A stretch of DNA of 64,000 nt, from assembly GCA_016196115.1 (NCBI GenBank), contig JACPYI010000002.1:35976-99975 (forward strand). The letters run 5' to 3'. The translations under genes were made by a program, and so were the position numbers. The notes under the pieces are model-generated. The model saw only the letters and a list, made by a program, of their open reading frames with translations, was not told where the DNA came from and searched no databases. Shown here piece by piece: positions 3,206 to 52,678 of the stretch; the first letter of the stretch is position 1, and each line of letters begins with the position of its first letter. Origin of the DNA: Candidatus Sungiibacteriota bacterium. GTDB lineage: Bacteria; Patescibacteriota; Minisyncoccia; Sungbacterales; HO2-52-23.

Positions 3206-3259
3206 GGTATAAGAAGTATACTATAGGTCTTTAAAGAAAGAAAGGAGGACGGACGGGTG

Positions 3260-3424
3260 ATGGAAACTGATGATAAACTGCTTGTCTGGTCTGAAGAGGT
3301 TGAGCAAGCCAGGAAAAAAATTATAGCCGAACTGCGGGCTGCCGAAAAAACGATGGATCATCAGGAATATTGGGTTTTGACGAATCTAATACAGCGTTAT
3401 TGTTTGGGAGTAGATCAAGAATAG
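3260..3424 (+). CDS. small hypothetical protein (54 aa), not in the ORF track
   Basis: ATG at 3260 preceded by GGAGG about 11 nt upstream. Translates to METDDKLLVWSEEVEQARKKIIAELRAAEKTMDHQEYWVLTNLIQRYCLGVDQE*. Lies between the nuclease and the recombinase. Confidence 0.3.
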   Translation: METDDKLLVWSEEVEQARKKIIAELRAAEKTMDHQEYWVLTNLIQRYCLGVDQE

Positions 3425-8419: not shown

Positions 8420-9529
8420 TTAGGTATACTTTGATATGTTTAATAGTACGCCGATGCTCGCCAAAGTTATGACCAGCGACGTTCCCCCGTAGCTTACCAT
8501 AGGAAGGGGTATGCCGGTAAGCGGAAGTAGGCCGGAGATCGCGGCCATGTTGATAAATACCTGCGCCATGATGCCGACCGAGATTCCTGCCCCAAGCAGT
8601 TTGCCGAATACGTCAGGCGCGCGTCTGGCGATGAAGATGCCGCGCCAAAAAAACGTCGCAAAAAGCCCCAGCAACAGGCACACGCCGACCAGTCCCGTCT
8701 CTTCCGCGAAAATCGCGAAAATGGAATCCCCCATTGGTTCGGGCAGATACGAGTATTTCTGCAAACTTTTCCCGAACCCAAGGCCCCAGAATCCTCCCGA
8801 GCCGATGCCGATAAACGCCTGATTGATCTGGTACCCGATTCCTTTCGGATCGGTCTGCGGATCGAGAAAAACAAGAATGCGCTGCAGGCGGTACGGAGCA
8901 ATTTGAACGACCAGATAGAGCATAACCAGTCCAAGAACTATGAGCATGCCGATTTGCGAGACCTTCCCGCCGCCTAAAAAATACATGATCCCCGCGGTGG
9001 CCACAACCACGCCGAGCGTGCCGATGTCCGGCTGCATGACCAGAAAAATCCCGATGATCGCGAGCATGAGCGAGAACGGGATCATGCCGTACGACACGCT
9101 CTTGATCTCTTTTCTCCGCGCATCAAGCCAGCTTGCCAGATATACGAGAAACGAAAACTTGAGCACTTCGGACGGCTGAAAACTGAATCCTCCCGCTTGC
9201 AGCCACCGGCGCGCACCGCCGGCAACATAGCTGAAATGGGGGATGAAAAGAAGCGCTGAGAGCAGAAACGAGAGTATCATGAGCGGCAGCGCCAGCCGTT
9301 TCCATATCCGGTACGGCATCCATTGGGTGAGCGCAAGCGCTATTCCTCCAAGAATTCCTCCATACAAAAATTGCCGCAGCGTGTAGAAGTAGATATTCCC
9401 AAAATTCTTTTGCGACATCACCATGGACGCCGAAGCCAGAATCAAAAGCCCCGCGACCAAGATCGCAAGCGTGAGAAAGAGCATGGGTCTATCGAGTCGG
9501 TGAGGCATTCCGTAGTTTCCGCAACCCAA
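8420..9529 (-). CDS. ftsW: FtsW/RodA/SpoVE family peptidoglycan polymerase
   Basis: Polytopic membrane protein with the conserved C-terminal SEED-family region (PLPMVSYGGTSLV). Confidence 0.85.
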   Translation of the reverse strand: MGCGNYGMPHRLDRPMLFLTLAILVAGLLILASASMVMSQKNFGNIYFYTLRQFLYGGILGGIALALTQWMPYRIWKRLALPLMILSFLLSALLFIPHFSYVAGGARRWLQAGGFSFQPSEVLKFSFLVYLASWLDARRKEIKSVSYGMIPFSLMLAIIGIFLVMQPDIGTLGVVVATAGIMYFLGGGKVSQIGMLIVLGLVMLYLVVQIAPYRLQRILVFLDPQTDPKGIGYQINQAFIGIGSGGFWGLGFGKSLQKYSYLPEPMGDSIFAIFAEETGLVGVCLLLGLFATFFWRGIFIARRAPDVFGKLLGAGISVGIMAQVFINMAAISGLLPLTGIPLPMVSYGGTSLVITLASIGVLLNISKYT

Positions 9530-9588
9530 TCACTTTTTTGCTTAAGTTAAACTTCGTTTAAAAGTCGCAAAAAAAGTGATTGGGTTGC
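9521..9588. repeat. long perfect hairpin (21-bp stem, inner 6-bp stem with TTCG loop) in the ftsW-murD spacer; member of a hairpin repeat family
   Basis: gcaacccaatcacttttttgc [ttaagttaaacttcgtttaaaagtc] gcaaaaaaagtgattgggttgc. Shares a near-identical core with the element at 52679-52745. Confidence 0.6.
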
Positions 9589-9604
9589 TCGAGATAAGCA
9601 CAGC

Positions 9605-11567: not shown

Positions 11568-11640
11568 AAAATTCTGGGAACTGTCACTAAAATTTAAATC
11601 AACAAATGGTACACGATCGTGGACGAAATGTTGATTTATT

Positions 11641-13863: not shown

Positions 13864-15912
13864 ATGAGTAGCAAGGCGCATGCCAAACACGAATTGCTGA
13901 TTGCATCGGTCACTCCCCAAAATCTTGAACGGGGCGTTTTGTGGTTTTCGGAGAATCATGGGGCCATAAAGAAGGCGAGTGCGAGCCATATATGGTGGCA
14001 GAAGAATAGTATGATGGTGGAAGAGAGTTTGGTGATAAAGCCCTCGGAACTGATCAGGCGCATGACCGATATGGGGTATGAGCGCAGCCAAACAGTGGGC
14101 GGCAAGGGCCTCGTGAGCATGCGTGGAGGCATTATCGAAATCTGGCCGGTCAACACCGCGGCTCCGTATCTGATCGAGTTCGACGGAAACGTCATCTCGG
14201 AAATTTTGCCGCGGCAAAAAACCGAAGAGAGATCGAAACCGAAATTGAGCCAAAGGCACGCAATCGAGAAACTTCCCGCGGGAAGTTATGTCGTACACAT
14301 CGACCATGGCATTGGCATTTTCCGTGGCACCGGACCCGCCATTAAAAATTTAAATTTACTGGGCTTCTCTAAGATAGAATATGCGGCACCCGGTCCCGGC
14401 CGCGCACCGGACATGTTATATGTGCCGATCGGTCAAAAAGACCGGCTCTTGCCGTACGTTGGGTTCGAGATGCCGCGCGTCCATCGTCTGGGCGGCAGCG
14501 TGTGGGAGAAAACCAAACGCAAAGTCAAAGAGGAAACCGAGAAACTGGCGCGTGAACTTCTGGAGCTCTACGCGAAGCGCCACGTGGTCGAACGACCTCC
14601 GCATATGGGCGATGCCGGACTTGAGCAAGAATTGATTGCGCGGTTTCCGTTTCAGGAAACGACTGATCAGCTCAAAGCGGAGGAAGAGATCATGCACGAT
14701 CTTGCGCGCACCCGGCCCATGGACAGGATTCTGTGCGGAGATGTCGGATTCGGCAAAACCGAGATCGCGATCCGCGCGGCGCTCCGCGTGATCGCATCGG
14801 AAAAACAGGTGACGCTGCTCGCTCCCACGACCGTGCTCGCCGCGCAGCACGAACGCACGCTCAAAGAGCGTTTCGCAAACACCGCGATCTCCGTGGGCAT
14901 GCTGTCGCGACTTACTTCCCAACACGAAGAAGGAAGGACTCTGCACGGGCTCGCAACCGGAACCGTTGACTGCATAGTCGGCACGCACCGCCTGCTCTCA
15001 AAAGATATTACGTTCAAAAATCTTGGACTGGTCATCATAGATGAGGAACAGCGCTTCGGCGTCAAGCAGAAAGAAGCGCTCAAAAATCTCCGCGCCGAGG
15101 TAGACGTGCTCTCGCTCTCCGCAACCCCGATCCCCCGCACACTGCAGTTGACGTTGGCGCACGTCCGGGATATCTCGTTTCTCAAGACCCCTCCGCCCGA
15201 CCGCCTTGCCATCCATACTTTTGTCCTCCCGTATACGCAAAAGACCATCGCACAGGCCCTGCGTCGCGAGCTTGAACGAGGCGGCCAGATCTATTTTCTC
15301 CATAACCGCATCGAAACCATCGGTGCCGTCAAACAGAAACTGGAAAAACTGCTTCAGAAAGTACCGCTCCGACAAAAGCGAGAGGCGGGTATGCTTGAGC
15401 GTTTTAGCGAAGCGTCTAGCGAAAGCACGCCCGCCTCTCGCTTACCCACGAGCAAGCCGCGAATCGGCGTGATGCACGGGCGCATGAGAGAGCACGAGAT
15501 GATCAAAATCATGGATGAATTCCGCAACAAAGAAATCGATATTCTGCTCGCGACTACGATCATCGAGAACGGACTCGATATCTCGTCCGCAAACACGCTC
15601 ATCGTGGACGATGCGACTCTGATCGGCCTGGCCGAAGCCCACCAACTGCGCGGCCGCGTAGGCAGGAGCGCGGCCCAGGCATTCGCATACTTTTTCTACA
15701 AGCCGCGCCGCATGACTGAAAAAGCCGCAGACCGCCTCCAAGCCCTGCAGGATTACGCCGACCTCGGCTCCGGATACGACATCGCCCTCCGCGACCTCGA
15801 AATCCGCGGCGCCGGAAACATCCTGGGCCGCGAGCAATCCGGCACGATCAACAAAGTTGGTCTCAATCTGTATTATCAAATGCTTGCGGAGGCGATTGAC
15901 CTCCTTCGCTAA
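13864..15912 (+). CDS. mfd: transcription-repair coupling factor, short form (RID plus translocase core; lacks UvrB-homology D1/D2 and C-terminal D7)
   Basis: CarD/TRCF RID motif (GSYVVHIDHGIGIFRG). Superfamily-2 helicase motifs DEEQRFGV, SATPIPRTL and HQLRGRVGR. 682 aa versus about 1150 aa for canonical Mfd. Confidence 0.8.
   Translation: MSSKAHAKHELLIASVTPQNLERGVLWFSENHGAIKKASASHIWWQKNSMMVEESLVIKPSELIRRMTDMGYERSQTVGGKGLVSMRGGIIEIWPVNTAAPYLIEFDGNVISEILPRQKTEERSKPKLSQRHAIEKLPAGSYVVHIDHGIGIFRGTGPAIKNLNLLGFSKIEYAAPGPGRAPDMLYVPIGQKDRLLPYVGFEMPRVHRLGGSVWEKTKRKVKEETEKLARELLELYAKRHVVERPPHMGDAGLEQELIARFPFQETTDQLKAEEEIMHDLARTRPMDRILCGDVGFGKTEIAIRAALRVIASEKQVTLLAPTTVLAAQHERTLKERFANTAISVGMLSRLTSQHEEGRTLHGLATGTVDCIVGTHRLLSKDITFKNLGLVIIDEEQRFGVKQKEALKNLRAEVDVLSLSATPIPRTLQLTLAHVRDISFLKTPPPDRLAIHTFVLPYTQKTIAQALRRELERGGQIYFLHNRIETIGAVKQKLEKLLQKVPLRQKREAGMLERFSEASSESTPASRLPTSKPRIGVMHGRMREHEMIKIMDEFRNKEIDILLATTIIENGLDISSANTLIVDDATLIGLAEAHQLRGRVGRSAAQAFAYFFYKPRRMTEKAADRLQALQDYADLGSGYDIALRDLEIRGAGNILGREQSGTINKVGLNLYYQMLAEAIDLLR
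15378..15441. repeat. palindromic element (12-bp perfect inverted repeat gcgagaggcggg / cccgcctctcgc) encoding an in-frame insertion of about 30 aa inside mfd
   Basis: The arms flank a 40-nt loop. The encoded segment LRQKREAGMLERFSEASSESTPASRLPTSK has no counterpart between the conserved VP and RIxxxHGxM positions of canonical Mfd. Confidence 0.55.
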
Positions 15913-16156
15913 AGCTATGGAGGTTAAAAAGAGGTGAAGAGTCAAAAAAATAGTCTGGAAGTTATTCCAGACTGACTATGTTGCCAATTTACCCAACTGA
16001 TAGTAAGTGTGGCCGTCTTGTATTCTTTTTTCAATTCTGGATAAAGTCAATTACCAAAGATATTTTACTATCGGTTCAAATCTTTGGTAAATCTTGGAAT
16101 GTAGGGGCGCCACATATATTTGCCACTCCTTTCCCTTTATAGTACGCTGAAAGCAC

Positions 16157-17251: not shown

Positions 17252-17379
17252 CGCCAAGACATGCGCGATTGTCTTTGAACGGCTTTCCGACCCGAGAGCA
17301 GAAGTCGCGTTACGCGACGAGGCTCGAGGGGAACGGCAGTGAAAAGATAATTGCGCATATAAGCTGAAGTAACATTCGT

Positions 17380-19942: not shown

Positions 19943-19972
19943 CAGCAACGCCTCGCCGAGTTCGGTGGGGTG

Positions 19973-21130
19973 TTATTTTTGAAGGGGAAACTCGTCGTAG
20001 TCCATCATGCTGGCCAAATCCCTGAGTTCAGTCTCCGCATGCGGATTGTGCGTGAAGGCGGCCGGTTCCATGAGCTGCTTGAAACGTCCCGAAAGAGTGC
20101 CGGCCCGGTAATACGCATCAAGAATATTTGCGTCAAAATGAGAATAAATCCGTCGCATCTTTTCCCGGAAAAACTCGTTCATGTCAGGGTTGGTTTGAAG
20201 AATTTCAGCAAACCGTATCTTCTGCCATAATAAAAAACCGATTTGCGTTTGCGCCCAGGCAAGCATGTCCTTGGCCGCATTGGCCATCTCAACGACACGT
20301 TCTTTCGGCTTGTCCGACAAATCCGCAAATCCGTCCGCTATTCGTTGGCGAAGCAACGCGCGCAACTCCCAGTATTCCGCGTTGCCCTTTTTACGAAATT
20401 CGCGTGGGTCAACACGCCCGCCTTCGGAAAGGTCTCCTATCGCGACAAGGGCGGTGACGAGCGAACTCTCGGCGGTAAGAAACGGCTGAAAGAATTTCAA
20501 CCCCGCGGGTCTGCCGTCTTCTGTTTTGGAAAGCATGTCAGTCACGTCAATGACAGCTTCCACCTCGCCGGCAGAGTTGCGCCGCCCTATCTTCGCATCA
20601 TCAGGAGAAGGAAAGGGCGCGGGGAACTCAACATCGGGATACGTCGCCGCAATCGCTGCCCGCGCCATGCGCCGGACATTTTCTGTAAAGTACGCGCCGT
20701 CAGGATCTTCCTCGTTCATAATCTGCTCCAGTTCAAGCCAGCTTGCCTCTTCATTGCCGTGTCGATCCTTCTCGCCCTTAAGGGCATCCCGCACAGCCGG
20801 CGGCATCTTCTCGCCAAATCCGCGGTACCGCATGGTGGTCCCATACCCGAACGTTCCCGGCGTCATGTTAACTCTTTTCCGAATGACCATGTCATGAGCC
20901 GCAGCCGCAAACCGACCTGCACGGCGCATCTCTTTGGTAACCGTGATGCCCGACTGCTCCGCAATATCAAGGCCCTCTTCCGCAGCCGCACCCACACCCT
21001 TTGGATGTTCGGGGTTATGATACGGCTCTCCCTCAAACTCCTTCGTCACCTTGTTTTCTATCCTCTCCATGGCACGTTCCCCAATCTGCTCTAACGAGCC
21101 CTCGCGATCTTCAAGAACTCCTTCTTTCAT
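19973..21130 (-). CDS. hypothetical protein, possible HD-type phosphohydrolase fold
   Basis: 385 aa. N-terminal GEPYHNPEHP...AAAHDMV resembles the H...HD arrangement, and the GEPYxxHP start is reminiscent of RelA/SpoT-type HD domains. The similarity is weak. Confidence 0.4.
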   Translation of the reverse strand: MKEGVLEDREGSLEQIGERAMERIENKVTKEFEGEPYHNPEHPKGVGAAAEEGLDIAEQSGITVTKEMRRAGRFAAAAHDMVIRKRVNMTPGTFGYGTTMRYRGFGEKMPPAVRDALKGEKDRHGNEEASWLELEQIMNEEDPDGAYFTENVRRMARAAIAATYPDVEFPAPFPSPDDAKIGRRNSAGEVEAVIDVTDMLSKTEDGRPAGLKFFQPFLTAESSLVTALVAIGDLSEGGRVDPREFRKKGNAEYWELRALLRQRIADGFADLSDKPKERVVEMANAAKDMLAWAQTQIGFLLWQKIRFAEILQTNPDMNEFFREKMRRIYSHFDANILDAYYRAGTLSGRFKQLMEPAAFTHNPHAETELRDLASMMDYDEFPLQK

Positions 21131-21398: not shown

Positions 21399-22442
21399 CT
21401 ACATCCCCTGCTCTCTAATCATTTTGGAGAGGATGCCGCGCAGTTCTTCTTCGGAGAAGAATTCGACTACGATCTTGCCGCGCTCGCCCATGCGCTGGAG
21501 CTGGACTTTGGTGCCGAGCTGTTCCTGGAGGCGGTTTTGCCAGTCGCGGAGTTCCGGGTCCTGGACGGAGTAGCCGGGGCGTTTGCGGGGGGTGAGGGTT
21601 TTGCCCCCTACCTGGCGGGCGTGGGCCTCGGCGGCGCGCACGCTCATATTGTCGCTCATGATGTCGCGGTAGACCTGGAGCTGCTTGAGTTGGTCGTCTC
21701 CGGCCATGAGAATGGCGCGGGCATGGCCTTCGGTAACGGCGCCGGTGTTGAGAGCGGTCTGGACTTCAGCGGGCAGGGACAAAAGGCGCAGCACGTTTGC
21801 CACGGCTTCGCGCGATTTACCGATGCGCACGGCGATCTCCCGCTGCACCAGGTGGAATTCGTCGATCAGCTGCTTGTAGGCGCGGGCGCGTTCGATCGCG
21901 TTTAAATCCTCGCGCTGCACATTTTCAATGATGGCAAGCTCGAGGCGCACGCGATCGTCCGGCACGCCGCGGCGGATAATCGCCGGGATTTGCGAAAGAC
22001 CCGCCAGCTTTGACGCCCGCCATCTGCGCTCGCCTGCGATCAGCTGGTAGCGGACTTCGAGTCCGGCTGGCGTATCAATCTCCCGTTTGGTCACGAGGAT
22101 CGGCTGCAGCACCCCGTGCTCGCGGATGGAGCGCGCCAGATCCTGCAATGCTTCCTCGTTGAATTCGCGGCGCGGCTGAAACGGATTGGGTTCTATTTTT
22201 TCAAGCTCGATCCAAAACACGGCCTCGCCTCTGCGGGGCGTGAAGTGATCTTCATAGCTTCGCGCGAGCGGGGCGGAGGTGCCGGCTCCTACCGTCGGAG
22301 TACCGGTCGGAGGTTCGACTTCAGGGAGTACCGGAGGCGCGGGAATCTCGTTTGCGGGATCAAGCGCCACAGGTTCATTCTGCGTGCGGTCGGGAATCAG
22401 GGATTCGAGTCCTTTGCCTAGAGGATCCAAAAAAATTTTCAA
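21399..22442 (-). CDS. parB: chromosome partitioning protein ParB/Spo0J with Pro-rich N-terminal linker
   Basis: LGKGLESLIP N-terminal motif. ParB box (LQPILV, IAGERRWRA) and HTH region. Confidence 0.85.
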   Translation of the reverse strand: MKIFLDPLGKGLESLIPDRTQNEPVALDPANEIPAPPVLPEVEPPTGTPTVGAGTSAPLARSYEDHFTPRRGEAVFWIELEKIEPNPFQPRREFNEEALQDLARSIREHGVLQPILVTKREIDTPAGLEVRYQLIAGERRWRASKLAGLSQIPAIIRRGVPDDRVRLELAIIENVQREDLNAIERARAYKQLIDEFHLVQREIAVRIGKSREAVANVLRLLSLPAEVQTALNTGAVTEGHARAILMAGDDQLKQLQVYRDIMSDNMSVRAAEAHARQVGGKTLTPRKRPGYSVQDPELRDWQNRLQEQLGTKVQLQRMGERGKIVVEFFSEEELRGILSKMIREQGM

Positions 22443-22470
22443 TTTTCAATTTTCAATTTTCAAACAAAGA
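22438..22470. repeat. tandem heptamer array (attttca x4) overlapping the parB start codon, followed by inverted TTGAAAAT-like copies in the parA-parB spacer
   Basis: aaattttcaattttcaattttcaattttcaaac, then gaattga / aattgaaaatt in the spacer. Confidence 0.5.
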
Positions 22471-22519
22471 ATTTGAGAATTGAATCATTGGAAATTGATT
22501 AAAAATTATAAATTGAAAA

Positions 22520-23296
22520 TTAAGCTACCCGAATTTCCTCTATGCGCAAAATTTCCTCGGCCAATCGCCGGTATGCTTTGGCGCCGTGGCTGTAGGGGTC
22601 GTAGTGCAAAATGGTCTTGCCGTATGACGGGGCTTCGGCCAAGCTGATGTTTCGCGGGATCACGGTCTCGAACACATATCCGGGAAATTTACGCTTGATC
22701 TCTTTGGCGACCGCGCGGTGCAGGCGTGATTTGCGATCGTACATCGTGAGCAGGGCGCCCATGACGCCGACGCGGGTTTTGAGATTTGCGTTGATCAGCC
22801 GGATCGTGTGCAGGAGATCGGCAAGCCCCTCAAGCGCGTAATACTCGCACTGGCTGGGAATAATGATCTTTTGCGCCGCGACCAGCGCGTTGATCGTGAG
22901 CAGTCCTAAACTGGGCGGCGAATCAATGACAATGAAATCATATCCTTTGCGAACCTGCTCAAGCGCTTCTTTCAGTTTATACTCACGCCTCGGCATGTCA
23001 ACCAGTTCCACGCCCGCTCCGGCAAGCGCAGGAGTGGCGGGCAAAATATCCACCCCCAAAATTCCGGTTTTCCTGATCGCCTCTTTCACGTCCGCTTTGC
23101 CGATGAGCGCATGGTACACCGAAATCTCGATGCGCTTGGAGTTGAGCCCCATGCCCGAGGTCGCGTTTGCCTGCGGATCAAAATCCACCAGCAGCACTTT
23201 CTGTCCGAGCGCAGCCAAGAACGCCGCAAGGTTGGTGCTCGACGTGCTCTTGCCCACCCCACCTTTTTGATTGCAAAGCGTAATAATGCGCGCCAT
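22520..23296 (-). CDS. parA: ParA/Soj family partition ATPase
   Basis: Deviant Walker A MARIITLCNQKGGVGKSTSSTNLAA. Confidence 0.9.
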   Translation of the reverse strand: MARIITLCNQKGGVGKSTSSTNLAAFLAALGQKVLLVDFDPQANATSGMGLNSKRIEISVYHALIGKADVKEAIRKTGILGVDILPATPALAGAGVELVDMPRREYKLKEALEQVRKGYDFIVIDSPPSLGLLTINALVAAQKIIIPSQCEYYALEGLADLLHTIRLINANLKTRVGVMGALLTMYDRKSRLHRAVAKEIKRKFPGYVFETVIPRNISLAEAPSYGKTILHYDPYSHGAKAYRRLAEEILRIEEIRVA

Positions 23297-26654: not shown

Positions 26655-29518
26655 TTGAGCAAAGCGTTTATGCTCTCCCGGGTTGGCAGATCAACGCTTC
26701 CGAAACCGGTGGTGCTTTGCGTGCCCTCGCATACGATCGCCTGATCGCACTGGAATTTTTTGACTGCGGTTTCGGTTGTGCCGTCGAAAAATCCTGTGGC
26801 GTTGCCGGCCTCAAGATAGTTGCGCGAGACAAGAAACCGCTGCAGCAGCGTTACCTCCGGATGCTTGATGCCGCGGTACAGATCGCGCGTCAAGATTCGG
26901 ACATCGTTTGAAGACAATTGAAGCGGGGCCGGGGAAGAAGGCGTTTTTGACTTTGCGGGCGGAGCTTTTTTGCGATCCGATGACGGTGATTTTACGGTGC
27001 GCGCCGAGGAAGAGGCGTGCGCGATAACCGCAGGCGTGCTTTCATGAATGTCATCCGACGATTTGGCGCCGAAAGCAGGGCTCGGCGGCATCACCAAAAC
27101 CAAGGAGCCGGGCGGAGGCGCCAAGGAAAGGAGCGAGCTCACTCCGAACAGCACGAACGTGGAAAGTTCCCGGGTCACGCAACTTATCTCGTGCAGATCA
27201 TCGTTCGTGCGGCACTGGCTTGTTTCGGTCCAATCTACGCCGGTCCAGCGCCAGATTTTAAGGGAACCCGGAATAATATCGCTCACGTCTTCCGGAAGAT
27301 AGCGCATAGTCAGCGTAACCGGTTTGTCCGAGGCGAAAACGGACGTTGACGGATCCTTGAGCACTACGATCCGGTATGCGTGGCCGGCGATCAGGCGCAA
27401 TTGCGACATGGGAGCAGGAACCGCGCTTGTGATCCCCGCCGGATCAAGTCCGTTGATCTCAACCGCTGCCGCATCGGGGAATCCGGAAGGAAGCGTGATG
27501 CTTGCCGACCGGTCATCGTCGCGGACCAGCGCAAGCGTCCTGTGCGGCAAAGTTGAAAGAATGCCCTCGCTATGCACAGCCGACAGCATTGTGCTAAGAC
27601 AACCGGTCGTGGTGAGCCGGTTCGTCAAGCTCACCGCCTCCCCGTCCGCAGAATTTTTCGAATATGCGCGATAGAAATAACTTGTGCACGGAACCATACT
27701 TTGAAGATTGACGGTATGCGTTCGCTGGCGGCCATCCGTGTCAAACTCCATGGTCGAGAAACGAAGGCCGCCCACGCCGTCGTACGCGACTCGGGTGGTG
27801 CTGTTTTTATCCGTAGCCCACGTAATCATTGCGGATGTATCGCCCACCTGCTGGCTCATAAGCCGGGAAATTACGGGCAACGAGGCATCGCTCACGAACG
27901 CGAGAGAAAAATCAGTTCCGGGTATTTTCACATCTTTATTTCCTGCAAGATAGCCGGTCAAAAGGTGGGAACCGCCGGGAAGATCGGCGAACACTCGAGA
28001 ACCCTTCAGCAGCGCGTCCGCATGGCCCTTACCGTTGTCAAGCTGAAAATGAATCGAGCGGCTGCCGGGTATGTCCGCGTCTCCGGTTACGGCCGAAGAA
28101 ATCGCGAGATTCGATCCGGGTACTGTCCCGTCAAGAAACGGAGCGCTGAGCGAGACGCTGGGCACCGGCGAGAAACGATTGATCTGCAGCTTGAACGAAA
28201 TCCTTTTTTCTTTTTTCGCGCTGATTGCGGTGATCGTGATCGGATGGATGCCGACCGGTGTTGTCCGCAAGGTCGAGATATACAGCGTGGTCAGGCACGG
28301 AAGCACGCAGGAAGCCGGAGAGAATATGCCGTATGCGTCGCTGGGAATTCCTTGGGCGGTAAAAGCAACGGTTTGACCCGCGCCTGACGTGAGCCGGCCG
28401 CCAAATGAAAAACCAGCCGAAGACCCTTGCGTGGCAGAGGACCCGTGGTCATCATCAAGACCCACGAGCTCAAAATCAAATACCGGCGCATTCACCGGGA
28501 GAAGAGAATCTTCCGAGGTCCAGCCGTCATACCCCACGTCGTAGTTGATGTTCCACCATCGCGAATCCGCCACGACTTCCGGACCGCCGATGATGGTTCC
28601 TTTCGTGTCCGGCGCCTGTACCCCGATCAAAGAATTGGACTTCAAAGGAACCTGCCGCACATCGGCCGCCCGCCAATTCCGGATCCTGTCTCCCGATTTG
28701 ATTCTCGGCCCCGACGGCAGCGCGAGCAGCGGAGAGGACGAGGCGATCATCACGTCGGTGCTGCCGGCATCCCGCACGGTAAAGACAAGCGGTGTGACGC
28801 GGCTTCCCTGAAGCATTTCATGTTTGGGTTGATATGCCGCGAGTATGCCGTCAATGCGATACGTGCCCGGGGGAAATTTTTGCGCAAATGATCCGGAGCG
28901 GAGTGCAGCATTGGTCTGACTGCCAATATCAAAGGCGTCTGCCCGCGCACTCCAGGTACCGTTTCGCAATACATCCGCCCACAGGTACGCGTGCGGGGTT
29001 TGGTCAGCAGCGGGCCAGTTACCGTCGATCTGATACGTGAACGCGACGATCTGGTCTTTGAGAATTTCGTGCTGGCGCGGAGCGGTAAAGGAGAGAATTG
29101 GAGGATTTGTCGCACCGCGCGGGATTTCGCGTAGCGAGACAAGCGGAGCCGAAAACACAAACCGCTGCGACGCGATGCGGTTTCCCGCAGCGTCGACCGA
29201 AATAACGCGATAGAAATAGATTAAACCGGGCTTGAGATTGATAATCCTTACCGCATGACTGAAAACTTGAGTCGGGTCAAGATCAGAACGGTTTCCATAG
29301 TTTTCATCAAGTCCGTACTCTACTTGCGAGTTTGCCAACGCATCAGTCATCCATCTTATCACCACGGTCTTTGGCGATGCTGAAGATGTCCCGATATCAT
29401 AGAGAGTGAATACGGGAGCAGATTGTGCATAGGCAAAACCAAACACACCGAGAAGCAAACTAAAGAGAAAAGCAAGAAGCCGGACAAAGAGTTTTTTTCT
29501 TGAACTCATAGACCTCAT
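26651..29518 (-). CDS. large secreted protein with two FN3-like domains and C-terminal peptidoglycan-binding domain
   Basis: Signal peptide. FN3/PAP-N-like motifs (VVIRWMTDALANSQVEYG...LIYFYRV and AMITWATDKNSTTRVAY...SYFYRAY). C-terminal PG_binding_1-like LLQRFLVSRNYL..ATGFFDGTTETAVKKFQ. Confidence 0.65.
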   Translation of the reverse strand: MRSMSSRKKLFVRLLAFLFSLLLGVFGFAYAQSAPVFTLYDIGTSSASPKTVVIRWMTDALANSQVEYGLDENYGNRSDLDPTQVFSHAVRIINLKPGLIYFYRVISVDAAGNRIASQRFVFSAPLVSLREIPRGATNPPILSFTAPRQHEILKDQIVAFTYQIDGNWPAADQTPHAYLWADVLRNGTWSARADAFDIGSQTNAALRSGSFAQKFPPGTYRIDGILAAYQPKHEMLQGSRVTPLVFTVRDAGSTDVMIASSSPLLALPSGPRIKSGDRIRNWRAADVRQVPLKSNSLIGVQAPDTKGTIIGGPEVVADSRWWNINYDVGYDGWTSEDSLLPVNAPVFDFELVGLDDDHGSSATQGSSAGFSFGGRLTSGAGQTVAFTAQGIPSDAYGIFSPASCVLPCLTTLYISTLRTTPVGIHPITITAISAKKEKRISFKLQINRFSPVPSVSLSAPFLDGTVPGSNLAISSAVTGDADIPGSRSIHFQLDNGKGHADALLKGSRVFADLPGGSHLLTGYLAGNKDVKIPGTDFSLAFVSDASLPVISRLMSQQVGDTSAMITWATDKNSTTRVAYDGVGGLRFSTMEFDTDGRQRTHTVNLQSMVPCTSYFYRAYSKNSADGEAVSLTNRLTTTGCLSTMLSAVHSEGILSTLPHRTLALVRDDDRSASITLPSGFPDAAAVEINGLDPAGITSAVPAPMSQLRLIAGHAYRIVVLKDPSTSVFASDKPVTLTMRYLPEDVSDIIPGSLKIWRWTGVDWTETSQCRTNDDLHEISCVTRELSTFVLFGVSSLLSLAPPPGSLVLVMPPSPAFGAKSSDDIHESTPAVIAHASSSARTVKSPSSDRKKAPPAKSKTPSSPAPLQLSSNDVRILTRDLYRGIKHPEVTLLQRFLVSRNYLEAGNATGFFDGTTETAVKKFQCDQAIVCEGTQSTTGFGSVDLPTRESINALLK

Positions 29519-32487
29519 TGTACCACAAAGTTAATGAGCTTGTCAGGAATAAAGATTACTCGAGTCGGTTCACTCGGCAGACGCTGTTTTACGGCATCCA
29601 AATTCCGGGCCAGCCGTGTTGCTTCCTGTTGGGAACTGCCGCGTTTAATTTCTATGACTACGCGTGTTTTACCGTTAATCTGAAAAATAAAATCAACCAT
29701 ATTTTCTTGAATGAATCGAGGATTATATTTCGGCCATGCCTCGCGATGGATAGATCTGAATTTCCGGCTTCCAGCCCCAAGCTCCCGGTTTCCAGATTTC
29801 TGCCATAATTCCTCCGTGATATGGGGGGCAAACGGCGCGAGCAACTTGAGAAAAATTTTTATGTCTTCCGCGCCTACCGCATTCTGTGATGCCTCAACCT
29901 CATTGAGTAAAATCATCAGCGCTGATATTGCCGTGTTGTACTGCAAATTCTCAATATCCTCCGTAACTTTCTTAATTGTTTTGTGCAGTATTATTTGTAA
30001 TGCGTCATCTTGAGGGCGATGCCCGAAGGATCTCTTGAGATTCTTCTCCGCCGGTTGGCGGATCATAATGACTTTGTGTGCAAACTTCCATACGCGCTCC
30101 AAAAATCGAGTTATGCCGCGAATGCCGGTGTCGCGGAAATCCCCGCCCTGTTCGAACGGCGCGAGAAACGCCAGATACATGCGCACCGCGTCGGCTCCGT
30201 ACGCGCGAATATAGTCGTCGGGATTGACCACGTTTCCTTTCGATTTTGACATTTTAGCGCCATCTTTAGTGATGAGTCCATGCGCCCTGAATTTCGGAAA
30301 CGGCTCTTCGAACTTCAGCAGTTTCCAATCGCAGAAAGCCATAGTCAGAAAACGCGAATACATGAGGTGCAATACGGAGTGTTCGGCGCCGCCGATATAA
30401 ATGCTTACCGGCAGCCACTTCTTGGTGATTTCTTGATCCCAAGGGACTTGTCCCGAGCGAGCAGAGCGAGTCGAGGGGTAGCGAAGAAAATACCACGCCG
30501 AATCAAGAAAAGTGTCCGAGACATCGGTCTCCCGACGCGCCATTTTTTTACACTTCGGACAACGGACTTTATAAAATGTCGCAACCGATGCAAGCGGCGA
30601 TTGGTCCGTACCGGTCGGCCGGAAATCTTTTACAAACGGCAGCTTGACCGGCAGATTTTTCTCCGGCACCGCATACCATCCGGGCATCTCCGGCCGCTCC
30701 CCTCTGCCGGTATTCTTGCATACCTCGCAAAAAATCATCGGAATCGGCGGTCCCCAGTACCGCTGCCGCGAAAGCAGCCAATCGCGCAGATGATATTGCG
30801 AAACCCTTTTCCCCCTCACGAATTTCGTGATCTCCCATTTTGCCTCTTCCGAATCCATGCCGGTGAACGAACCGGAATGGGTCAAAATTCCGTCTCCCGT
30901 ATAGGCGCGAGATCTGTCAAGAATCGCAAGCGCCCAGCGATGGCTTTCAGGCGACAAAAATTTTTCCAAGTCCTCTTTTGAAAACCAGAACATATCGTGG
31001 TTCTTCTGCTCGGCTTCGGAGATTGCTTCGCGTGCTCCATCTTGCAGCTCAAAATACAGCGCCCGCGCGTGTCCGAAACGATTCACCTGTTTGGGTACGT
31101 GGTACCATTTGCCATGTATGATGCCAAGATCGGCAATAAGTTTCGGATGCAGGAATCCTGCTTCTTCCCTGATTTCAGCTTTTGCGGCTTCTTCCGCAGT
31201 CTGTCCTTTTTCAATGCCGCCGGTTACCAGGGTCTGCCATGCCACGGTCTTCCACTTGAGTCCGATATACTTTTCTTCGGACCAATGCTTCACGATGGCG
31301 ATGATCGCGTCGCGATGTTCAAACGGCAAATCTTTGCGCACAATACCAGGCTCGGTCGTCTGGATGAATACCGGCTCGATCACCTGCCGGTTCGCGATCT
31401 TGTATTTCTTCGCAAACGCAAAATCGCGCTCGTCATGCGCCGGCACCGCCATGATCGCACCCGTACCGTAGCTGCCCAGCACGTAATCGGCGACAAAAAT
31501 CGAAATCTCTTCGTTGTTTGCCGGATTAATCGCCTTGATTCCTTTCAGTTCGACGCCGGTCTTTTCCTTGCCTGCGGCAATGCGATCCGCTTCTGCTTTT
31601 GTCCGTGCCTTTTTCACATATGCCACGACTTGCACATAGTTGGTAATCTGGGACTTGTGACTCTCTATAAATTCATGTTCAGGAGCAACCACCAAGTATG
31701 TCGCCCCAAACAGCGTATCCGGACGAGTAGTAAAAACTTCAATATCGTCATTCTTCACATCACTTTTCACTTTGAACTTTATCATCGCTCCTTCCGATTT
31801 TCCGATCCAGTTTTTCTGCGCGATTTTTACCCGCTCGGACCAGTCGATCTTCTCAAGATTTTGCAACAGGCGTTCTGTATATTGAGTAATGCGAAAAAAC
31901 CATTGCTCCAATTCTTTTTTAACCACCACGGACCCGCATCGCTCGCATTCGCCTGCGATAACCTGCTCGTCCGCAAGCACGGTCTTGCACGACGGACACC
32001 AGTTGACCGCCTGTTTTTTTCGGTATGCCAAACCCCGCTTAAACATCTGCACAAAGATCCATTGCGTCCATCGGTAATATTCAGCATCGTTCGTCTCCAG
32101 TCGTTCATCCCATGCAAACCCGTTGCCCATCATGGCAAGTTGCCGGTAAAAATTCTTTTCCAGAACACGACCGTAAGTCATTGGGTGCCGTCCGGTTTTC
32201 AGTCCATAATTTTCCGAGTGAATGCCAAACGCATCAAGTCCGATTGGCTCAAATACGTCATACCCCTGCATTCGCTTGAGACGGCCGTAGATATCAACAC
32301 CGGTGAACGTCCTCATGCCCCCAATGTGCAGCCCCTCCGCAGACGTGTACGGGAACATCATGAGATTATAAAACGGCTTTTTGGCGTGCTTAAAATCTGG
32401 TTCGTACGTCTTGTCCGCAAGCCACTTTTTTTGCCATCTGGCCTCAATTTTTTTCGGGTCGTATCGCATAGTTGACAAATTTTTCAA
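29515..32487 (-). CDS. leuS: leucyl-tRNA synthetase carrying an in-frame Nudix-like domain insertion (about aa 372-528)
   Basis: HIGH (EGLHIGG), TTRPDT, AVPAHDERDF and RDWLLSRQRYWG motifs, and the C-terminal domain. Inserted segment contains a Nudix-box-like GGIEKGQTAEEAAKAEIREEAGF. Confidence 0.9.
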   Translation of the reverse strand: MKNLSTMRYDPKKIEARWQKKWLADKTYEPDFKHAKKPFYNLMMFPYTSAEGLHIGGMRTFTGVDIYGRLKRMQGYDVFEPIGLDAFGIHSENYGLKTGRHPMTYGRVLEKNFYRQLAMMGNGFAWDERLETNDAEYYRWTQWIFVQMFKRGLAYRKKQAVNWCPSCKTVLADEQVIAGECERCGSVVVKKELEQWFFRITQYTERLLQNLEKIDWSERVKIAQKNWIGKSEGAMIKFKVKSDVKNDDIEVFTTRPDTLFGATYLVVAPEHEFIESHKSQITNYVQVVAYVKKARTKAEADRIAAGKEKTGVELKGIKAINPANNEEISIFVADYVLGSYGTGAIMAVPAHDERDFAFAKKYKIANRQVIEPVFIQTTEPGIVRKDLPFEHRDAIIAIVKHWSEEKYIGLKWKTVAWQTLVTGGIEKGQTAEEAAKAEIREEAGFLHPKLIADLGIIHGKWYHVPKQVNRFGHARALYFELQDGAREAISEAEQKNHDMFWFSKEDLEKFLSPESHRWALAILDRSRAYTGDGILTHSGSFTGMDSEEAKWEITKFVRGKRVSQYHLRDWLLSRQRYWGPPIPMIFCEVCKNTGRGERPEMPGWYAVPEKNLPVKLPFVKDFRPTGTDQSPLASVATFYKVRCPKCKKMARRETDVSDTFLDSAWYFLRYPSTRSARSGQVPWDQEITKKWLPVSIYIGGAEHSVLHLMYSRFLTMAFCDWKLLKFEEPFPKFRAHGLITKDGAKMSKSKGNVVNPDDYIRAYGADAVRMYLAFLAPFEQGGDFRDTGIRGITRFLERVWKFAHKVIMIRQPAEKNLKRSFGHRPQDDALQIILHKTIKKVTEDIENLQYNTAISALMILLNEVEASQNAVGAEDIKIFLKLLAPFAPHITEELWQKSGNRELGAGSRKFRSIHREAWPKYNPRFIQENMVDFIFQINGKTRVVIEIKRGSSQQEATRLARNLDAVKQRLPSEPTRVIFIPDKLINFVVQ

Positions 32488-37045: not shown

Positions 37046-37082
37046 GTCATTCTCGCGGAAGCGGGAATCCAGAAAAATGACA
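37046..37082. repeat. double-hairpin repeat family, truncated copy E (H1 plus remnant of H2 end)
   Basis: gtcattCtcgcggaagcgggaatccag aaaaatgacaa. Lies immediately upstream of the AI-2E transporter start. Confidence 0.6.
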
Positions 37083-40664: not shown

Positions 40665-42621
40665 CTATTTCACCAGCCATTCTTTTGGGTTGGCCGGGGT
40701 GTCGTTTTTGAGTTCGATGGTCAGGGAACCGATGTGTTGCTCGACCGGTTGCCCGGTGAAACTATCGATGCCGATCAGTTTGACATCTCTGACCAGTTCG
40801 ATAATCTTTCCGCGGTCGAACTCCGACGGCGTGATGGATGCCTGGAAGGCGGCGGTAAGCGCGGGCGAAAAGATACCGGTGCCGGCGGGTATCTCCCCGA
40901 TGTTCCATATCAGATCCTGGGTACCGCGATCAAACGTCATTCGGGCGCTTTGCGGAAATGTTTTTTCTTCCCAATGCACATGGCTCGGCAGTGTAGTGCT
41001 TACCACGACATTCTGCAGCGTATTGGAAAAACTTCGCGCCTCGAGCAGGATTGTATACGTCGTTTTCTTGCCGACTTCCGGCGGCAGCGGTCCGCTGTTC
41101 AAAATCGGAGACGCGTGATACACGGCTCTGCCCGCAAACACGACATGCGAGCGTACTTTGAGGCGCAGCGCGTCGTTCGCGGTCAGATCAGTCCCGGCGA
41201 GTTCGCTTGGCTGCTCGCCTGCTTCAATGTGCGCGCTTATTCCGGCAGCCAGATTTTTTTCGCCGGCATTGCGAAGTATGGGTGTCTTTCGCAAATCCAC
41301 GAGGATGCTCACCTGGCCGCCCTGCCCCGGGGCAAGCTCGCGAAGCCCGGTCACGTTTGCCGGCGCCCAGATCAGGGTGCGGGTCTGGCCGTCATAGATC
41401 CCTGCATCCTGAATCCGCAGCGACGGAAAATCATATATCCGATACTCACCGCGCTCGAATCGCGTCAGCGTATCCAATGCTCCCGATGCGTTAAAAAATT
41501 CTTCAAGCGACGCGCGGATCGTGATATTTTTGAGCAGCGACAACGTATTATTCCGATATCGCAGGGTGAATGCCACACTGTCGCCTTCTCCGACCACGCC
41601 CTCGCGTTTGTCATTGAAAAACGCCTGAACGGAAAGCGGCGCCGCGGCAATGCGTGTCTCCGAACTGGCCTCGCTGTAGATCATAAACTCTTCATTCGCT
41701 CCATTGAATACGCCAAGCATGCCGTGGAATGCCTTGATGTCGCCGTCCTGCCCCGAGAGGGTACCGTGGATCGTGATGTCGCCGCCGGCTCCGGGCGAAA
41801 GCGTACCGAGATCCCAGAGCATCGTGTCTTTGGCCGGCGCGGGATCGGCGGAAGCGAACGAGAAGCCGTCCGGATACTCGAGCCGGAGCGACATGTGCTC
41901 GAATGGAAGCCGGGCACTGGACACATAATGCACTTTTACGTCTACGTTCTGCCCGCGGCTCACGGTCTGGGGCACTTCCCACGAGACCGCCAGGGGCACG
42001 CTTGCGACCAGAAGCGTTTCCGCGGCACGGGTCGTAAAGCGCGCCTGGAGATTTTGCGGGCGGTACAGAAGCACCGCTTCTATGTTTTTCTGGTCCCCTT
42101 CTTTGCCGAAGATCCGGGTGGTGATTTCGACGACGCGTTCCTCGTCCGGCTTGAGATCGTCAAGTTTTTCAACGAACCGCGACGGCACCACCGTTTCCTG
42201 GTTGCCCTGTTGGATCACGGACCCGGGAGGCAGCACGAGTGCCAATTCAACATCCTGCACGGTCGTATGAGACGTGTTATGCATGCTGACCGGAATCGTG
42301 CGCGCCTCGCCCGATATGAGCGGCCCCTGATCATGCAAAGCCAAGCGTACCTCTTGCCCGCGCGTGCCAAGATACAGGAATAAAAACGTTGCCATACCAA
42401 TGATCAGAACCAATATGAATCCGCCCAGAATAGGCCAGAAAAGCTTGCGCTCAAAAAGGCTCTGTTTTTGGACCGGAGGCGCGTATCCGGGCTCCTCCCA
42501 TGAGGCCTGCGGGCGGCGCATGGTCTCGGGAAAATGCTCGCGATATTGCATCCGCCTCTTCAACTCTTCATCCGAACCCGACTCGTATAATTTTTTTTGC
42601 AAATCTTCGACTTTGGTCATA
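40665..42621 (-). CDS. large membrane-anchored hypothetical protein with repeated beta-sandwich (DUF11/CARDB-like) modules
   Basis: N-terminal TM helix then about 550 aa of repetitive extracellular sequence. The start is taken at MTKVEDLQKK, because the longer listed ORF would run into the upstream hairpin element. Confidence 0.55.
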
Positions 42622-42643
42622 CACCTTAACTTATTTTTACCAA

Positions 42644-42712
42644 GCAAGAAAGGCAAGTGCTTTAAGCGGCTTAGCGTACTCGCGTCAAAGCGTAAGCACT
42701 TGCCTTTCTTGC
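42644..42712. repeat. long perfect hairpin (19-bp stem, 31-nt loop) between recO stop and the next gene start
   Basis: gcaagaaaggcaagtgctt ... aagcacttgcctttcttgc. Confidence 0.6.
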
Positions 42713-42716
42713 TCCT

Positions 42717-43163
42717 CTACAAATGTAATCCCAGAAACGGCGCGAAACGATCCGCAAACCTCCGGAACACTTCTTCTGAAAATTCCCGTTCATCGAGCAG
42801 CAGCATGCTTTCAAGCAAAAGCTCCCACAGCGCGGCGTCTTTTTGTCCGGGAAACGAGCGTTCGTTCATGAGCGCCGCAATCCGGAGCGCCGCAAAGAGC
42901 TTTTCGGGATTTTGCCGCATGCCCTCCCAAAACCGCGTCATGGTCGCATGCGTCAGGCGCTCGCCGCGCTTGCCTAAAACAAATGTCACGCGCACCATGC
43001 TTAATGGCTCAAGATGGCCCTTGAGCTTCGCGCCTTCCTTTTTTACGCTTTGCGCCCGGCCGCGGATTTTCCCGAATTCTTTGGTATAAATGTCGTACAG
43101 CGCGTCATATTCGCCGTATGAAGTTTTATTCAATACGATTCCTTCTGTGGTGTGATATTCCAT
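42717..43163 (-). CDS. recO: DNA repair protein RecO, N-terminal OB-fold domain only
   Basis: EGIVLNKTSYGEYDALYDIYTKEFGKIRGRAQSVKK matches the RecO N-domain. At 148 aa it lacks the C-terminal Zn-finger domain. Confidence 0.65.
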   Translation of the reverse strand: MEYHTTEGIVLNKTSYGEYDALYDIYTKEFGKIRGRAQSVKKEGAKLKGHLEPLSMVRVTFVLGKRGERLTHATMTRFWEGMRQNPEKLFAALRIAALMNERSFPGQKDAALWELLLESMLLLDEREFSEEVFRRFADRFAPFLGLHL

Positions 43164-43170
43164 TCAGCAT

Positions 43171-43237
43171 GTCATTCCCGACTTGATCGGGAATCCAGTT
43201 CTTTACCATTCCGGATTCCCGCTTTCGCGGGAATGAC
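43171..43237. repeat. double-hairpin repeat family, copy B, 7 nt upstream of recO ATG
   Basis: gtcattcccgacttgatcgggaatccag ttctttaccattc cggattcccgctttcgcgggaatgac. Confidence 0.7.
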
Positions 43238-46306: not shown

Positions 46307-46765
46307 CTACTCCACTTTCAACCCGAATTGCTCCGGATGCTCCAGAACATTTTTCACGGCGTGAAGAAATATGTCGAAGTCGCCAAGATTATCGCGTAGG
46401 ATGCCGTATAGTTCTTCGGGTTTGATTTCAGCATAAAAATGCGTCAGGCGATTACGATACCCGGCCATACGAGCAAGCGCGGAGTCCGCAAACTTTTTTT
46501 CCACGATTCCCAATTCTCCCAATTTTTTGGCGATATCTTTATACTCTGTCCCTCGTCCGCCGTTTAAGCGCGACAGGATATGCGTTCCGATATGAAAAAC
46601 ACCTTCCAGCGCCTCGCGAAGATGCAGCTTGGCAACGTCAAAATGATAATCCTCCCGCGCAAACTGCTCGAGCGGATAGGCGCTCAATTTTCGCAACAAC
46701 TCCAAGTCGCGCAAAATGCCGTCCATGCGGGGAATCAATGATTGTCGTTTCAGCGGGGGCGTCAT
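46307..46765 (-). CDS. hepT: HepT-like HEPN toxin (DUF86)
   Basis: Rx4HxY motif (RNRLTHFY) near the C-terminus. Overlaps the upstream NTase gene by 4 nt. Confidence 0.8.
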   Translation of the reverse strand: MTPPLKRQSLIPRMDGILRDLELLRKLSAYPLEQFAREDYHFDVAKLHLREALEGVFHIGTHILSRLNGGRGTEYKDIAKKLGELGIVEKKFADSALARMAGYRNRLTHFYAEIKPEELYGILRDNLGDFDIFLHAVKNVLEHPEQFGLKVE

Positions 46766-47184
46766 ATGCGTTGGAGAACTCCTCGATTAAATTCATTGAG
46801 CAATGGCATGAAGTCGCGATAGAGCGCTGCAACGCGTTCTTCAAAATCCAATCGAATGTCCGGGTCTGTTTCAAACAGCACCTGCCCGTGCGTAATTACG
46901 TCAAACCGAAGTTCAAGCGGCACGCGGTCAAGAAAAACAATGTCAATGTCGCGAAAACCGCTCATGTCAAAAACATCCGTGAAGACATCGTACAATGCGT
47001 TATACAATTCCGTCTTGTTTTCGGGCAACGGCAGCGCATTGCGCGAGAATAGAACGCCCACATCTATATCGCTTGCAGACGTTGCCAATCCTTCGGCGTG
47101 GGAACCAAAGAGATACAAAACCGCAACACCCAGTTGGCGCAGCCGGTCTGCTGGAATCGGTTTTTTTTGTATCGGGAAAAGCAT
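46762..47184 (-). CDS. mntA: MntA-like minimal nucleotidyltransferase antitoxin
   Basis: LFGSHAEGLATSASDIDVGVLF is the GS..(n)..DxD NTase-fold motif. Operonic with the HepT gene. Confidence 0.8.
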   Translation of the reverse strand: MLFPIQKKPIPADRLRQLGVAVLYLFGSHAEGLATSASDIDVGVLFSRNALPLPENKTELYNALYDVFTDVFDMSGFRDIDIVFLDRVPLELRFDVITHGQVLFETDPDIRLDFEERVAALYRDFMPLLNEFNRGVLQRI

Positions 47185-47454: not shown

Positions 47455-47517
47455 ATGGTCTTGAGTATACCAGAATGATCTGAAAACGCACGCGAGGTTA
47501 TCAACATGCTTCGTATT

Positions 47518-47557
47518 CCACTAAGCAAAATAGACGGCCGTCTATTTTGCTTAGTGG
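47518..47557. repeat. 40-bp perfect palindrome (20-bp arms, no loop) immediately after xseB stop
   Basis: ccactaagcaaaatagacgg|ccgtctattttgcttagtgg. Confidence 0.6.
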
Positions 47558-47559
47558 AG

Positions 47560-52660: not shown

Positions 52661-52678
52661 AAGTTTTGTTAGGAGTAA

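Follow-up and report, generated by a model that had tools for sequence, protein, structure and literature searches.

The 64-kb stretch of Candidatus Sungiibacteriota DNA considered here (contig JACPYI010000002.1; the whole stretch is called the window) carries long hairpins in spacers between co-directional genes and, in one case, within the coding sequence of mfd. These hairpins are probably copies of palindromic insertion cassettes, small (about 80-96 nt) and non-autonomous, which make up several low-copy families, A, B and C, in one Candidatus Sungbacteria clade. Related copies, as recognized by alignment, are shown to occupy non-orthologous loci, both within and between genomes, and every tested copy is shown by comparison of junctions to be an insertion of about 80-96 nt relative to close relatives. 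The aligned copies are shown to be conserved in their centre, which comprises the loop, the internal loop and the inner stem; their outer arms diverge quickly yet remain Watson-Crick complementary, and the same alignments show that the centre can invert in place.

Long hairpins in operon spacers

Four hairpins between co-directional minus-strand genes had been described in the initial annotation, and all four are present with the coordinates, anatomy and setting given there, at a strength which a stem scan and shuffling place far beyond chance. The scan finds seven hairpins of this strength in the window as against 0-1 in shuffled sequence, and the folding z-scores of the four are -5.6 to -10 relative to shuffles, whether they are folded as RNA or as DNA. 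A fifth, at 15376-15443, had been overlooked. The five are as follows.

9521-9539/9570-9588: A1 hairpin, a 19-nt perfect inverted repeat, 21 bp including one bulged A
52679-52699/52725-52745: A2 hairpin, 21-nt arms with two adjacent mispairs
42643-42662/42694-42713: B2 hairpin, 20-nt perfect arms and a 31-nt loop
47517-47537/47538-47558: singleton palindrome, 21+21 perfect, centre CGGCCG, no spacer
15376-15443: B1 hairpin, in frame inside mfd

The first four lie at the junctions murD-ftsW, HTH_25 'rodZ-like'-recA, RecO_N-DUF11 protein and xseB-like-thioredoxin-like, respectively, and each begins 1-16 nt past the upstream stop codon. Pfam supports the identification of FtsW, MurD, RecO_N, the DUF11 protein, the thioredoxin-like protein, XseA, RecA and the HTH_25 'RodZ-like' protein, and the 72-aa open reading frame (ORF) at 47560-47778, which adjoins xseA, looks like XseB. 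Hairpin-bearing spacers are 93, 94, 96 and 96 nt long and the insert in mfd is 90 nt, which suggests a unit of roughly 90 nt. The four had been presented as a single family, and this does not hold: only the 9521 and 52679 copies have a common core, the 42643 hairpin pairs with that at 15376-15443, and 47517 stands alone.

Family A

Three copies of family A are found in the window.

9509-9604, plus strand: A1 cassette, occupying the entire 96-nt murD-ftsW spacer, with its hairpin at 9521-9588
52661-52754, minus strand: A2 cassette, occupying the 94-nt rodZ-like-recA spacer, with its hairpin at 52679-52745 and its motif in mRNA sense
50244-50319, minus strand: A3, an A-like copy in the 93-nt murC-like-obg spacer (50229-50321)

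The core common to A1 and A2, already recognized in the initial annotation as lying in opposite orientations, is CACTTTTTTGCTTANGTTAAN6TTTAAAAGTCGCAAAAAA, 44 nt, at 9531-9574 on the plus strand and 52692-52735 on the minus strand; the pattern has exactly two matches in the window and none in 100 shuffles. The two copies also have in common their termini (GCAA...TTGC), inner arms and centre, while 5 of 21 positions differ between their outer arms and every one of these differences is compensated. A1 folds into a 21-bp outer helix, a 5x5 internal loop TTAAG/AAGTC, a 6-bp inner helix and a TTC loop, and its motif, being on the plus strand, is antisense to the operon mRNA. The conserved start of ftsW in relatives corresponds to ATG 9508, and the longest ftsW ORF, from TTG 9529, overlaps the A1 hairpin.

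A3 escaped both the initial annotation and the simple stem scan. In architecture, and in its GCTTA...AAAGTCGC internal loop, it agrees with A1 and A2; its outer stem is bulged. The ORF finder starts obg at 50312, and the conserved Obg N-terminus (MFIDDITIKVKAGSGG, MFIDD) begins at ATG 50228. A covariance model built from A1 and A2 (R2) has a match at 4943-5019 of L098, in the dprA-topA spacer of GCA_016206285.1 (35.8 bits, E 7e-5); L098, like L001, L005-L008, L013-L016 and L097 below, is a label for a sequence from a relative. The model gives A3 24.5 bits, on the minus strand only, and as any long hairpin scores 17-31 bits with filters off, the score alone is no proof of membership. A3 is placed in the family by the shared motif and by its similarity to the L098 copy: these two are 87% identical (66/76) at non-orthologous junctions, murC-like-obg and dprA-topA, of different genomes, and two compensated pairs differ in their inner helices.

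All four A copies have a common fold, with an outer helix, a 5x5 loop TTA(A/C)(G/A)/AAGTC that G-C pairs close, an inner helix of 5-7 bp and a loop of 3-5 nt. The inner helices of the two subfamilies are out of register in a MAFFT alignment, and covariation across subfamilies was read from the individual folds. The strand carrying the motif is in mRNA sense in three of the four copies (A2, A3 and L098) and antisense in A1. Confinement of the core to the 9521 and 52679 loci had been named beforehand as a finding that would count against a dispersed family; it nearly holds for the exact core, and diverged members were found by the structure-aware model. When A1 was compared by blastn with 50,697 phage records, the only matches were chance ones of 20-27 nt.

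Filled and empty junctions

By its RecA, Mfd and FtsW homologues the window belongs to Candidatus Sungbacteria, among the Parcubacteria of the candidate phyla radiation. The closest genomes available for comparison have a RecA identity of 91-94% and an Mfd identity of about 80-85%. Where the window has 96 nt between murD and ftsW, there is a 1-nt overlap in L014 and L015 and 3 nt in L016, and where it has 94 nt between the rodZ-like gene and recA, L001 (RecA 93% identical) has a hairpin-less 16 nt. The window's 128-nt dprA-topA spacer, most of which is taken up by a further hairpin, corresponds to a 4-nt overlap in L006, L007 and L013, and in L098 the A-like cassette stands in place of that hairpin.

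17261-17358, plus strand: imperfect hairpin of 98 nt, with a 16-bp outer stem that includes two G.T pairs, in the dprA-topA spacer 17252-17379

The converse also occurs: at ftsW-murG and gltX-M23, L014 and L016 have hairpin spacers, and in the window these genes are 3 nt apart or overlap. Because the relatives' junctions have no hairpins, each hairpin so compared is part of an insertion of 80-96 nt; for B2, at 42643, we infer by analogy that it too is an insertion. It had been suggested that the arms might derive from the target site, and the comparison of filled with empty sites speaks against this, as the empty sites hold nothing like the arms and no target-site duplication is found.

The comparison also bears on whether each palindrome arose where it stands, as an independent inverted duplication generated by template switching or fold-back repair. 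Arms that are perfect and specific to their locus are what such events would leave, and some palindromes, at 47517-47558 and at 6136-6181 of L014, have no loop. The empty sites have no sequence resembling either arm, however, and the centres are common to unrelated loci and genomes, so that a local origin is very improbable overall; as judged from those shared centres it is largely refuted for A, B and C and would be possible only for the singleton.

47517-47558, no strand assigned: palindrome 1 nt past the xseB-like stop codon, in the 105-nt spacer 47455-47559

No sequence relative of this palindrome is present within the window. It resembles loop-less CGATCG-centred palindromes in relatives (6136-6181 of L014 and 8372-8409 of L016), and its assignment to a family is tentative.

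Family B and an in-frame copy in mfd

The second family has one copy in a spacer and one in a gene.

42621-42716, plus strand: B2 cassette, occupying the 96-nt spacer between the RecO_N and DUF11-protein genes, with its hairpin at 42643-42713
15358-15447, plus strand: B1 cassette, a 90-nt (30-codon) in-frame insertion in mfd that encodes ...KVPLRQKREAGMLERFSEASSESTPASRLP...

B2 has a 20-bp perfect stem and a 31-nt centre with the blocks AGCG..TTAGCG..GCGTC..AGCG, and it shares GCTT..AGCG..TTAGCG..GCGTC..AGCG..AAGCAC with the mfd copies. The recO-like ORF beside it, 42717-43163 on the minus strand, is only 148 aa long with RecO_N as the sole domain detected, and its stop codon is 3 nt before the hairpin.

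Residues 498-529 of the window's Mfd are extra in comparison with Mycobacterium smegmatis Mfd, residue 497 aligning with 895 of the solved chain and 530 with 896. In an AlphaFold2 model the insert scores below 50 in the predicted local distance difference test (pLDDT) and is flanked by a helix and a strand, both helicase elements, that are modelled with confidence, and on this model it is a 30-codon addition to a predicted surface loop of the protein. The empty site, CTGCTTCAC/ACGAGCAAGCC, is seen in P0124/L006 and P0127/L013, and a homologous insert is present in the window, in L007/L008, in L005 and in L097. The same hairpin in independent NCBI and Logan assemblies (L007/L008) excludes an assembly artefact. 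Among 43 Sungbacteria Mfd proteins the insert site has 4-9 residues in 19 and 10-54 in the other 24, the long ones often carrying the family C peptides SYDRK, HDR or DDR, and a second hot spot, past HIDHGIGIF, behaves in the same way. A metagenome scan for Mfd, which returned mostly distant relatives, mostly at 40-58% identity, was used for background only. Sungbacteria mfd appears to be a recurrent landing site.

The mfd copies permit constraint on the nucleotides to be separated from constraint on the peptide. Pairwise comparison of four mfd orthologues gives 0, 1, 1, 3, 3 and 4 differences in the 26-nt centre for the six pairs, while four-fold degenerate sites of mfd differ at 0.44-0.56, and centre conservation to this extent has P of about 1e-6 to 4e-9. 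L005 and L097 carry the centre in exactly or almost exactly reverse-complemented form, with the encoded peptide going from LERFSEASSES to LSLDASLKRSS; since the flip changes the peptide completely, the constraint is on the nucleotides and is independent of orientation. The gene tree of the clade is star-like and the number of flips and losses is correspondingly uncertain.

The arms behave differently from the centre. Those of the mfd copies differ between genomes at 3-7 of 20 positions, with perfect complementarity in three copies and two mispairs in that of the window. Between copies, nine of 21 stem pairs have both partners altered and no pair has just one altered, and 96% of stem cells are paired, a level reached by none of 500 shuffles. 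Changes in the stem between copies are all Watson-Crick, without G.U intermediates, and this, together with the A.C mispairs that A2 has on its mRNA strand, argues that complementarity is kept at the DNA level. A covariance model of family B (R1) turned up no further copies, either in the window or across 0.94 Mb of loci from the candidate phyla radiation (CPR). A resemblance between families A and B, CTTCG.T.AAAA, is missing from B2 and was dismissed as coincidental, and a 9-mer common to 15952-15973 of the window and 811-848 of L004 was judged to be due to chance.

Hairpins and the operon transcript

The hairpins could also be read as host-functional RNA punctuation, whether as RNase III sites, 3'-end stabilizers or a protein-binding RNA motif in polycistronic mRNA, and their placement immediately past stop codons would suit this. 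RNase III acts on near-perfect double-stranded RNA of about 20 bp or more, and the 19-21 bp helices on the mRNA strand (that of A2 has a 2x2 mismatch and still folds as RNA) have the requisite length. The internal-loop bases of family A are conserved between covarying inner and outer helices, with the motif in mRNA sense in all copies except A1, and most spacers fold strongly (z <= -4 in 13 of 27 tested, nearly all 50-160 nt long). Correia elements (CREE/NEMIS), whose transcripts form hairpins that are bound or cleaved by RNase III, provide a precedent (PMC2649163). Set against these points are the lack of the hairpins in close relatives, where the corresponding gene pairs overlap, the presence of one copy within a coding sequence, and the fact that in A1 and in two of the four mfd copies it is the motif's complement that the mRNA carries. 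The exclusively Watson-Crick stem changes tell in the same direction, as does a pairing argument that had been raised in favour of RNA. The 52679 stem was noted to keep pairing through G.T wobble on the plus strand; the G.T pairs are there, but the operon mRNA has the minus-strand sequence, on which the mispairs are A.C and C.A, so that the argument had been applied to the wrong strand. There is no match to an Rfam family: with Rfam 15, at gathering thresholds and at E<=1, only a tRNA passes, the segment 9521-9590 having a sub-threshold score to a miRNA precursor model (25.8 versus 56.4 bits). On balance RNA punctuation is unlikely to be what maintains the hairpins. The idea of RNase III sites, which had been one of the candidate roles proposed, loses ground because the core is found in either orientation with respect to transcription and one member is in a coding region; RNase III processing might occur as a secondary effect, one that the orientation data neither require nor favour.

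Location just past stop codons would equally suit intrinsic terminators of an unusual type lacking a U-tract. That they are not canonical terminators had been stated at the outset and is confirmed, the stems being 19-21 bp with no T-run on either strand rather than GC-rich, 5-12 bp and followed by a U-tract. Flanking genes that are translationally coupled in relatives, a hairpin inside mfd, and the occurrence elsewhere in the genome of the canonical hairpin-plus-T-run arrangement all make termination, even of an unusual kind, barely credible. Scans for sigma-70 promoters and for terminators gave nothing within the hairpins. Canonical terminator-like hairpins at gene ends of the window, with 10-12 bp GC-rich stems and then T-runs, are these.

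19947-19974: terminator-like hairpin
49144-49187: terminator-like hairpin
57667-57696: terminator-like hairpin

Families C and D and DNA recognition

Family C has the centre ACGATCGT, often with arms AATCAACA/TGTTGATT, and its copies in relatives occupy spacers or lie in frame within mfd and murD. In close relatives 12 of 15 ACGATCGT sites are the centres of hairpins. The pattern has no match in IMG/VR.

11595-11638, no strand assigned: family C hairpin with arms AAATCAACA/TGTTGATTT and centre CACGATCGTG, in the 53-nt spacer 11588-11640

L098 has three CGATCG-centred hairpins within 1.7 kb (1609-1648, 2736-2783 and 3255-3302), two in frame at the two mfd hot spots and one just past the stop codon of mfd, and a further CGATCG-centred hairpin is within murD of L014 (1385-1411).

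A different repeat, family D, of the type GTCATTCCCGCGTAAGCGGGAATCCAG / (G)TCATTCCCGCGTAAGCGGGAATCCAG (ATTCCCG-N6-CGGGAAT), has five matches in spacers versus 0.03 expected. It matches the Neisseria NTS/dRS3 and 'SRM' repeats, which are targets of the GIY-YIG Ssn nucleases that act on single-stranded DNA (ssDNA) (PMC11893778).

21326-21345: family D site
37049-37068: family D site
43174-43234: family D site
47793-47860: family D site
61384-61444: family D site

With repeats resembling these known Ssn targets in the same genome, and dprA also present, the A and B centres might be thought of as recognition sites which the host keeps in its DNA for a sequence-specific protein that would bind or cut them as double-stranded DNA, a cruciform or ssDNA; an Ssn-like nuclease acting on transforming DNA, or an architectural protein such as those of bacterial interspersed mosaic elements (BIME), RIP elements and Correia cores, would be examples. 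Conservation of the centre independently of orientation suits DNA better than RNA. Families A and B have no match to the NTS/SRM motif CGTCATTCCCGCGMAVGCGGGAATCYRG, no ssn-like or other GIY-YIG gene was seen in the window, nor an HUH or other candidate gene, and two to three copies per 64 kb is far under the density of uptake or restriction-type motifs. Moreover, NTS keeps its stem and 5' flank with a dispensable loop (PMC11893778), the reverse of the pattern here, and recognition sites maintained by the host are decidedly improbable as the explanation.

Spread of the cassettes

Insertion cassettes are thus the preferred reading of the hairpins. Of the roles proposed initially, RNase III processing sites, REP-like elements and protein-binding palindromes, the second comes closest: the hairpins are insertions missing from close relatives and form small dispersed families that include a copy inside a gene. 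As a mechanism, the cassettes would spread by copying through a trans-acting enzyme that recognizes the folded centre, and a hairpin-specific ssDNA enzyme, either HUH/RAYT or GIY-YIG Ssn in type, would be fitting. Only harmless insertions, between genes or in frame in tolerant loops, would survive. Template switching or recombination within the palindrome could keep the arms perfect, and the same process could flip the centre and delete the element, so accounting for both the flips and the precise losses. Once transcribed, stems of about 20 bp might, more speculatively, acquire a secondary role as RNase III or stability sites in the manner of Correia elements.

Several observations weigh against this reading. 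No candidate for a mobilizing gene (GIY-YIG, HUH or Y1 transposase) is found among the proteins of the window, and the only transposase there belongs to an IS5-type insertion sequence (IS), which was rejected as parent since its 19-bp ends are unrelated to the hairpin arms. No direct repeat of at least 3 nt flanks A1, A2, B1, B2 or the 47517 palindrome, the boundaries being imprecise enough to leave room for one of 1-2 nt, and no conserved terminal inverted repeats can be seen. The copies are very few: for the exact A core there is no match in 185,579 species genomes (GTDB), JGI metagenomes or IMG/VR, and scans with the B pattern gave the known relative only, plus three chance matches without arms. 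That nearly every window spacer of 50-130 nt folds strongly could mean host function instead. Finally, the near-invariant centre of the vertically inherited mfd copies looks like the result of host selection, which is not predicted for a purely selfish element.

As simple selfishness does not explain conservation of the centre independently of orientation, a host function or a dedicated enzyme is kept alive as a reading. It is conceivable, if doubtful, that CPR bacteria carry a distinct 'centre-conserved, arm-free' class of cassette, a domesticated system in which the folded centre, in family A the 5x5 loop TTAAG/AAGTC with a covarying helix on either side, would be read by a dedicated hairpin-specific protein and kept by purifying selection at the nucleotide level in either orientation, the cassettes meanwhile uncoupling genes that used to overlap and remodelling protein loops.

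Other features of the window

The insertion sequence is between ftsK and rpoC, and relatives have none at that site.

55857-57164: IS5-type IS of 1308 bp with perfect 19-bp terminal inverted repeats TGAGACCGTAGAACAATAC; its transposase, 55989-57038 on the minus strand, has DUF772 and DDE_Tnp_1

The leucyl-tRNA synthetase ORF (29515-32487, minus strand, 990 aa) has a NUDIX match at aa 416-510, after the editing domain and ahead of the catalytic domain's second half. In the parB-parA spacer there is an AT-rich imperfect palindrome of TTTTCAA repeats (22434-22521) which is conserved at 18116-18205 of L007, does not belong to the hairpin families and may be a site related to a centromere or an origin. 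A HepT-like RNase and a nucleotidyltransferase (MNT) are encoded as an adjacent pair at 46307-47184 on the minus strand, just downstream of the thioredoxin-like gene, and make up a putative toxin-antitoxin module.

Implications and relation to known palindromic elements

The genomes of Patescibacteria are tiny and tightly packed, and are usually regarded as repeat-poor. If the hairpins are indeed cassettes, such elements are actively reshaping operon spacing in one clade, with the coupled pairs murD/ftsW and dprA/topA split by them, and are adding peptides to essential proteins, in parallel with the palindromic elements of Rickettsia in an unrelated reduced lineage. An invariant, flippable centre with freely covarying arms would point to an enzyme that recognizes hairpins and so to a candidate ssDNA tool like the Ssn nucleases. 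On a practical level the cassettes mislead gene callers, the ORF starts at 9529 and 50312 running into elements, and they could serve as strain markers in metagenomes.

Miniature inverted-repeat transposable elements are a poor fit, as the arms differ (5/21 between A1 and A2, 3-7/20 in mfd), no target duplication of 3 nt or more is seen, and the only candidate for an autonomous element, the IS of the window, does not have matching ends. Enterobacterial repetitive intergenic consensus (ERIC) sequences, or intergenic repeat units (IRU), are imperfect palindromes, up to about 127 bp in length, built around a conserved central inverted repeat, and are present in transcribed operon spacers in either orientation. 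The cassettes are alike in being imperfect palindromes with a conserved centre that occupy operon spacers in both orientations; there is no sequence relation, however, and ERIC copy numbers are far higher with in-frame genic copies being exceptional. ERIC is among the elements listed in PMC10969869.

TIGR arrays are tandem stem-loops beside a tas gene for a Nop-domain protein, their loops having two variable spacers of 8-12 nt flanked by box C/D (PMC12045711). They were ruled out, the copies here being dispersed singletons with conserved loops and no Nop-domain protein being encoded in the window. Closer in some respects are REP elements (repetitive extragenic palindromes) and BIMEs with their REP-associated tyrosine transposases (RAYTs), and the NTS/SRM repeats with Ssn, which are likewise short extragenic hairpins, often just past genes, and are read as ssDNA by a single-domain enzyme (PMC3733652, PMC11893778). 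REPs are 20-40 nt long with a GTAG/CGTC tag, a conserved stem and a high copy number, and they flank the gene for the enzyme, whereas families A and B have no tag at the foot of the hairpin and no cognate gene in the window, and conserve the centre instead.

With Correia elements the cassettes share an inverted repeat with a conserved core, residence in transcribed spacers and polymorphism between strains. The ends of Correia elements are conserved 26-bp repeats, and these elements have a TA duplication, an integration host factor (IHF) site and copies in the hundreds, whereas the cassettes vary at their termini and show no duplication. The likeness to Rickettsia palindromic elements (RPEs) lies in their being small palindromic repeats of a reduced genome, in several families, with no transposase of their own (PMC10969869). 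RPEs too are both intergenic and inserted in frame in unrelated housekeeping proteins at places that the fold tolerates (PMC10969869), as is the 30-codon insert in mfd. They are about 100-150 bp, have tens of copies and a conserved peptide, in contrast to elements of about 80-96 nt, in a CPR phylum, with two to three copies per family in 64 kb, unconserved arms and a peptide that changes with each flip. On the best-supported reading the cassettes are RPE-like in their genic copies and Correia- or ERIC-like in their occupation of operon spacers and their conserved core.

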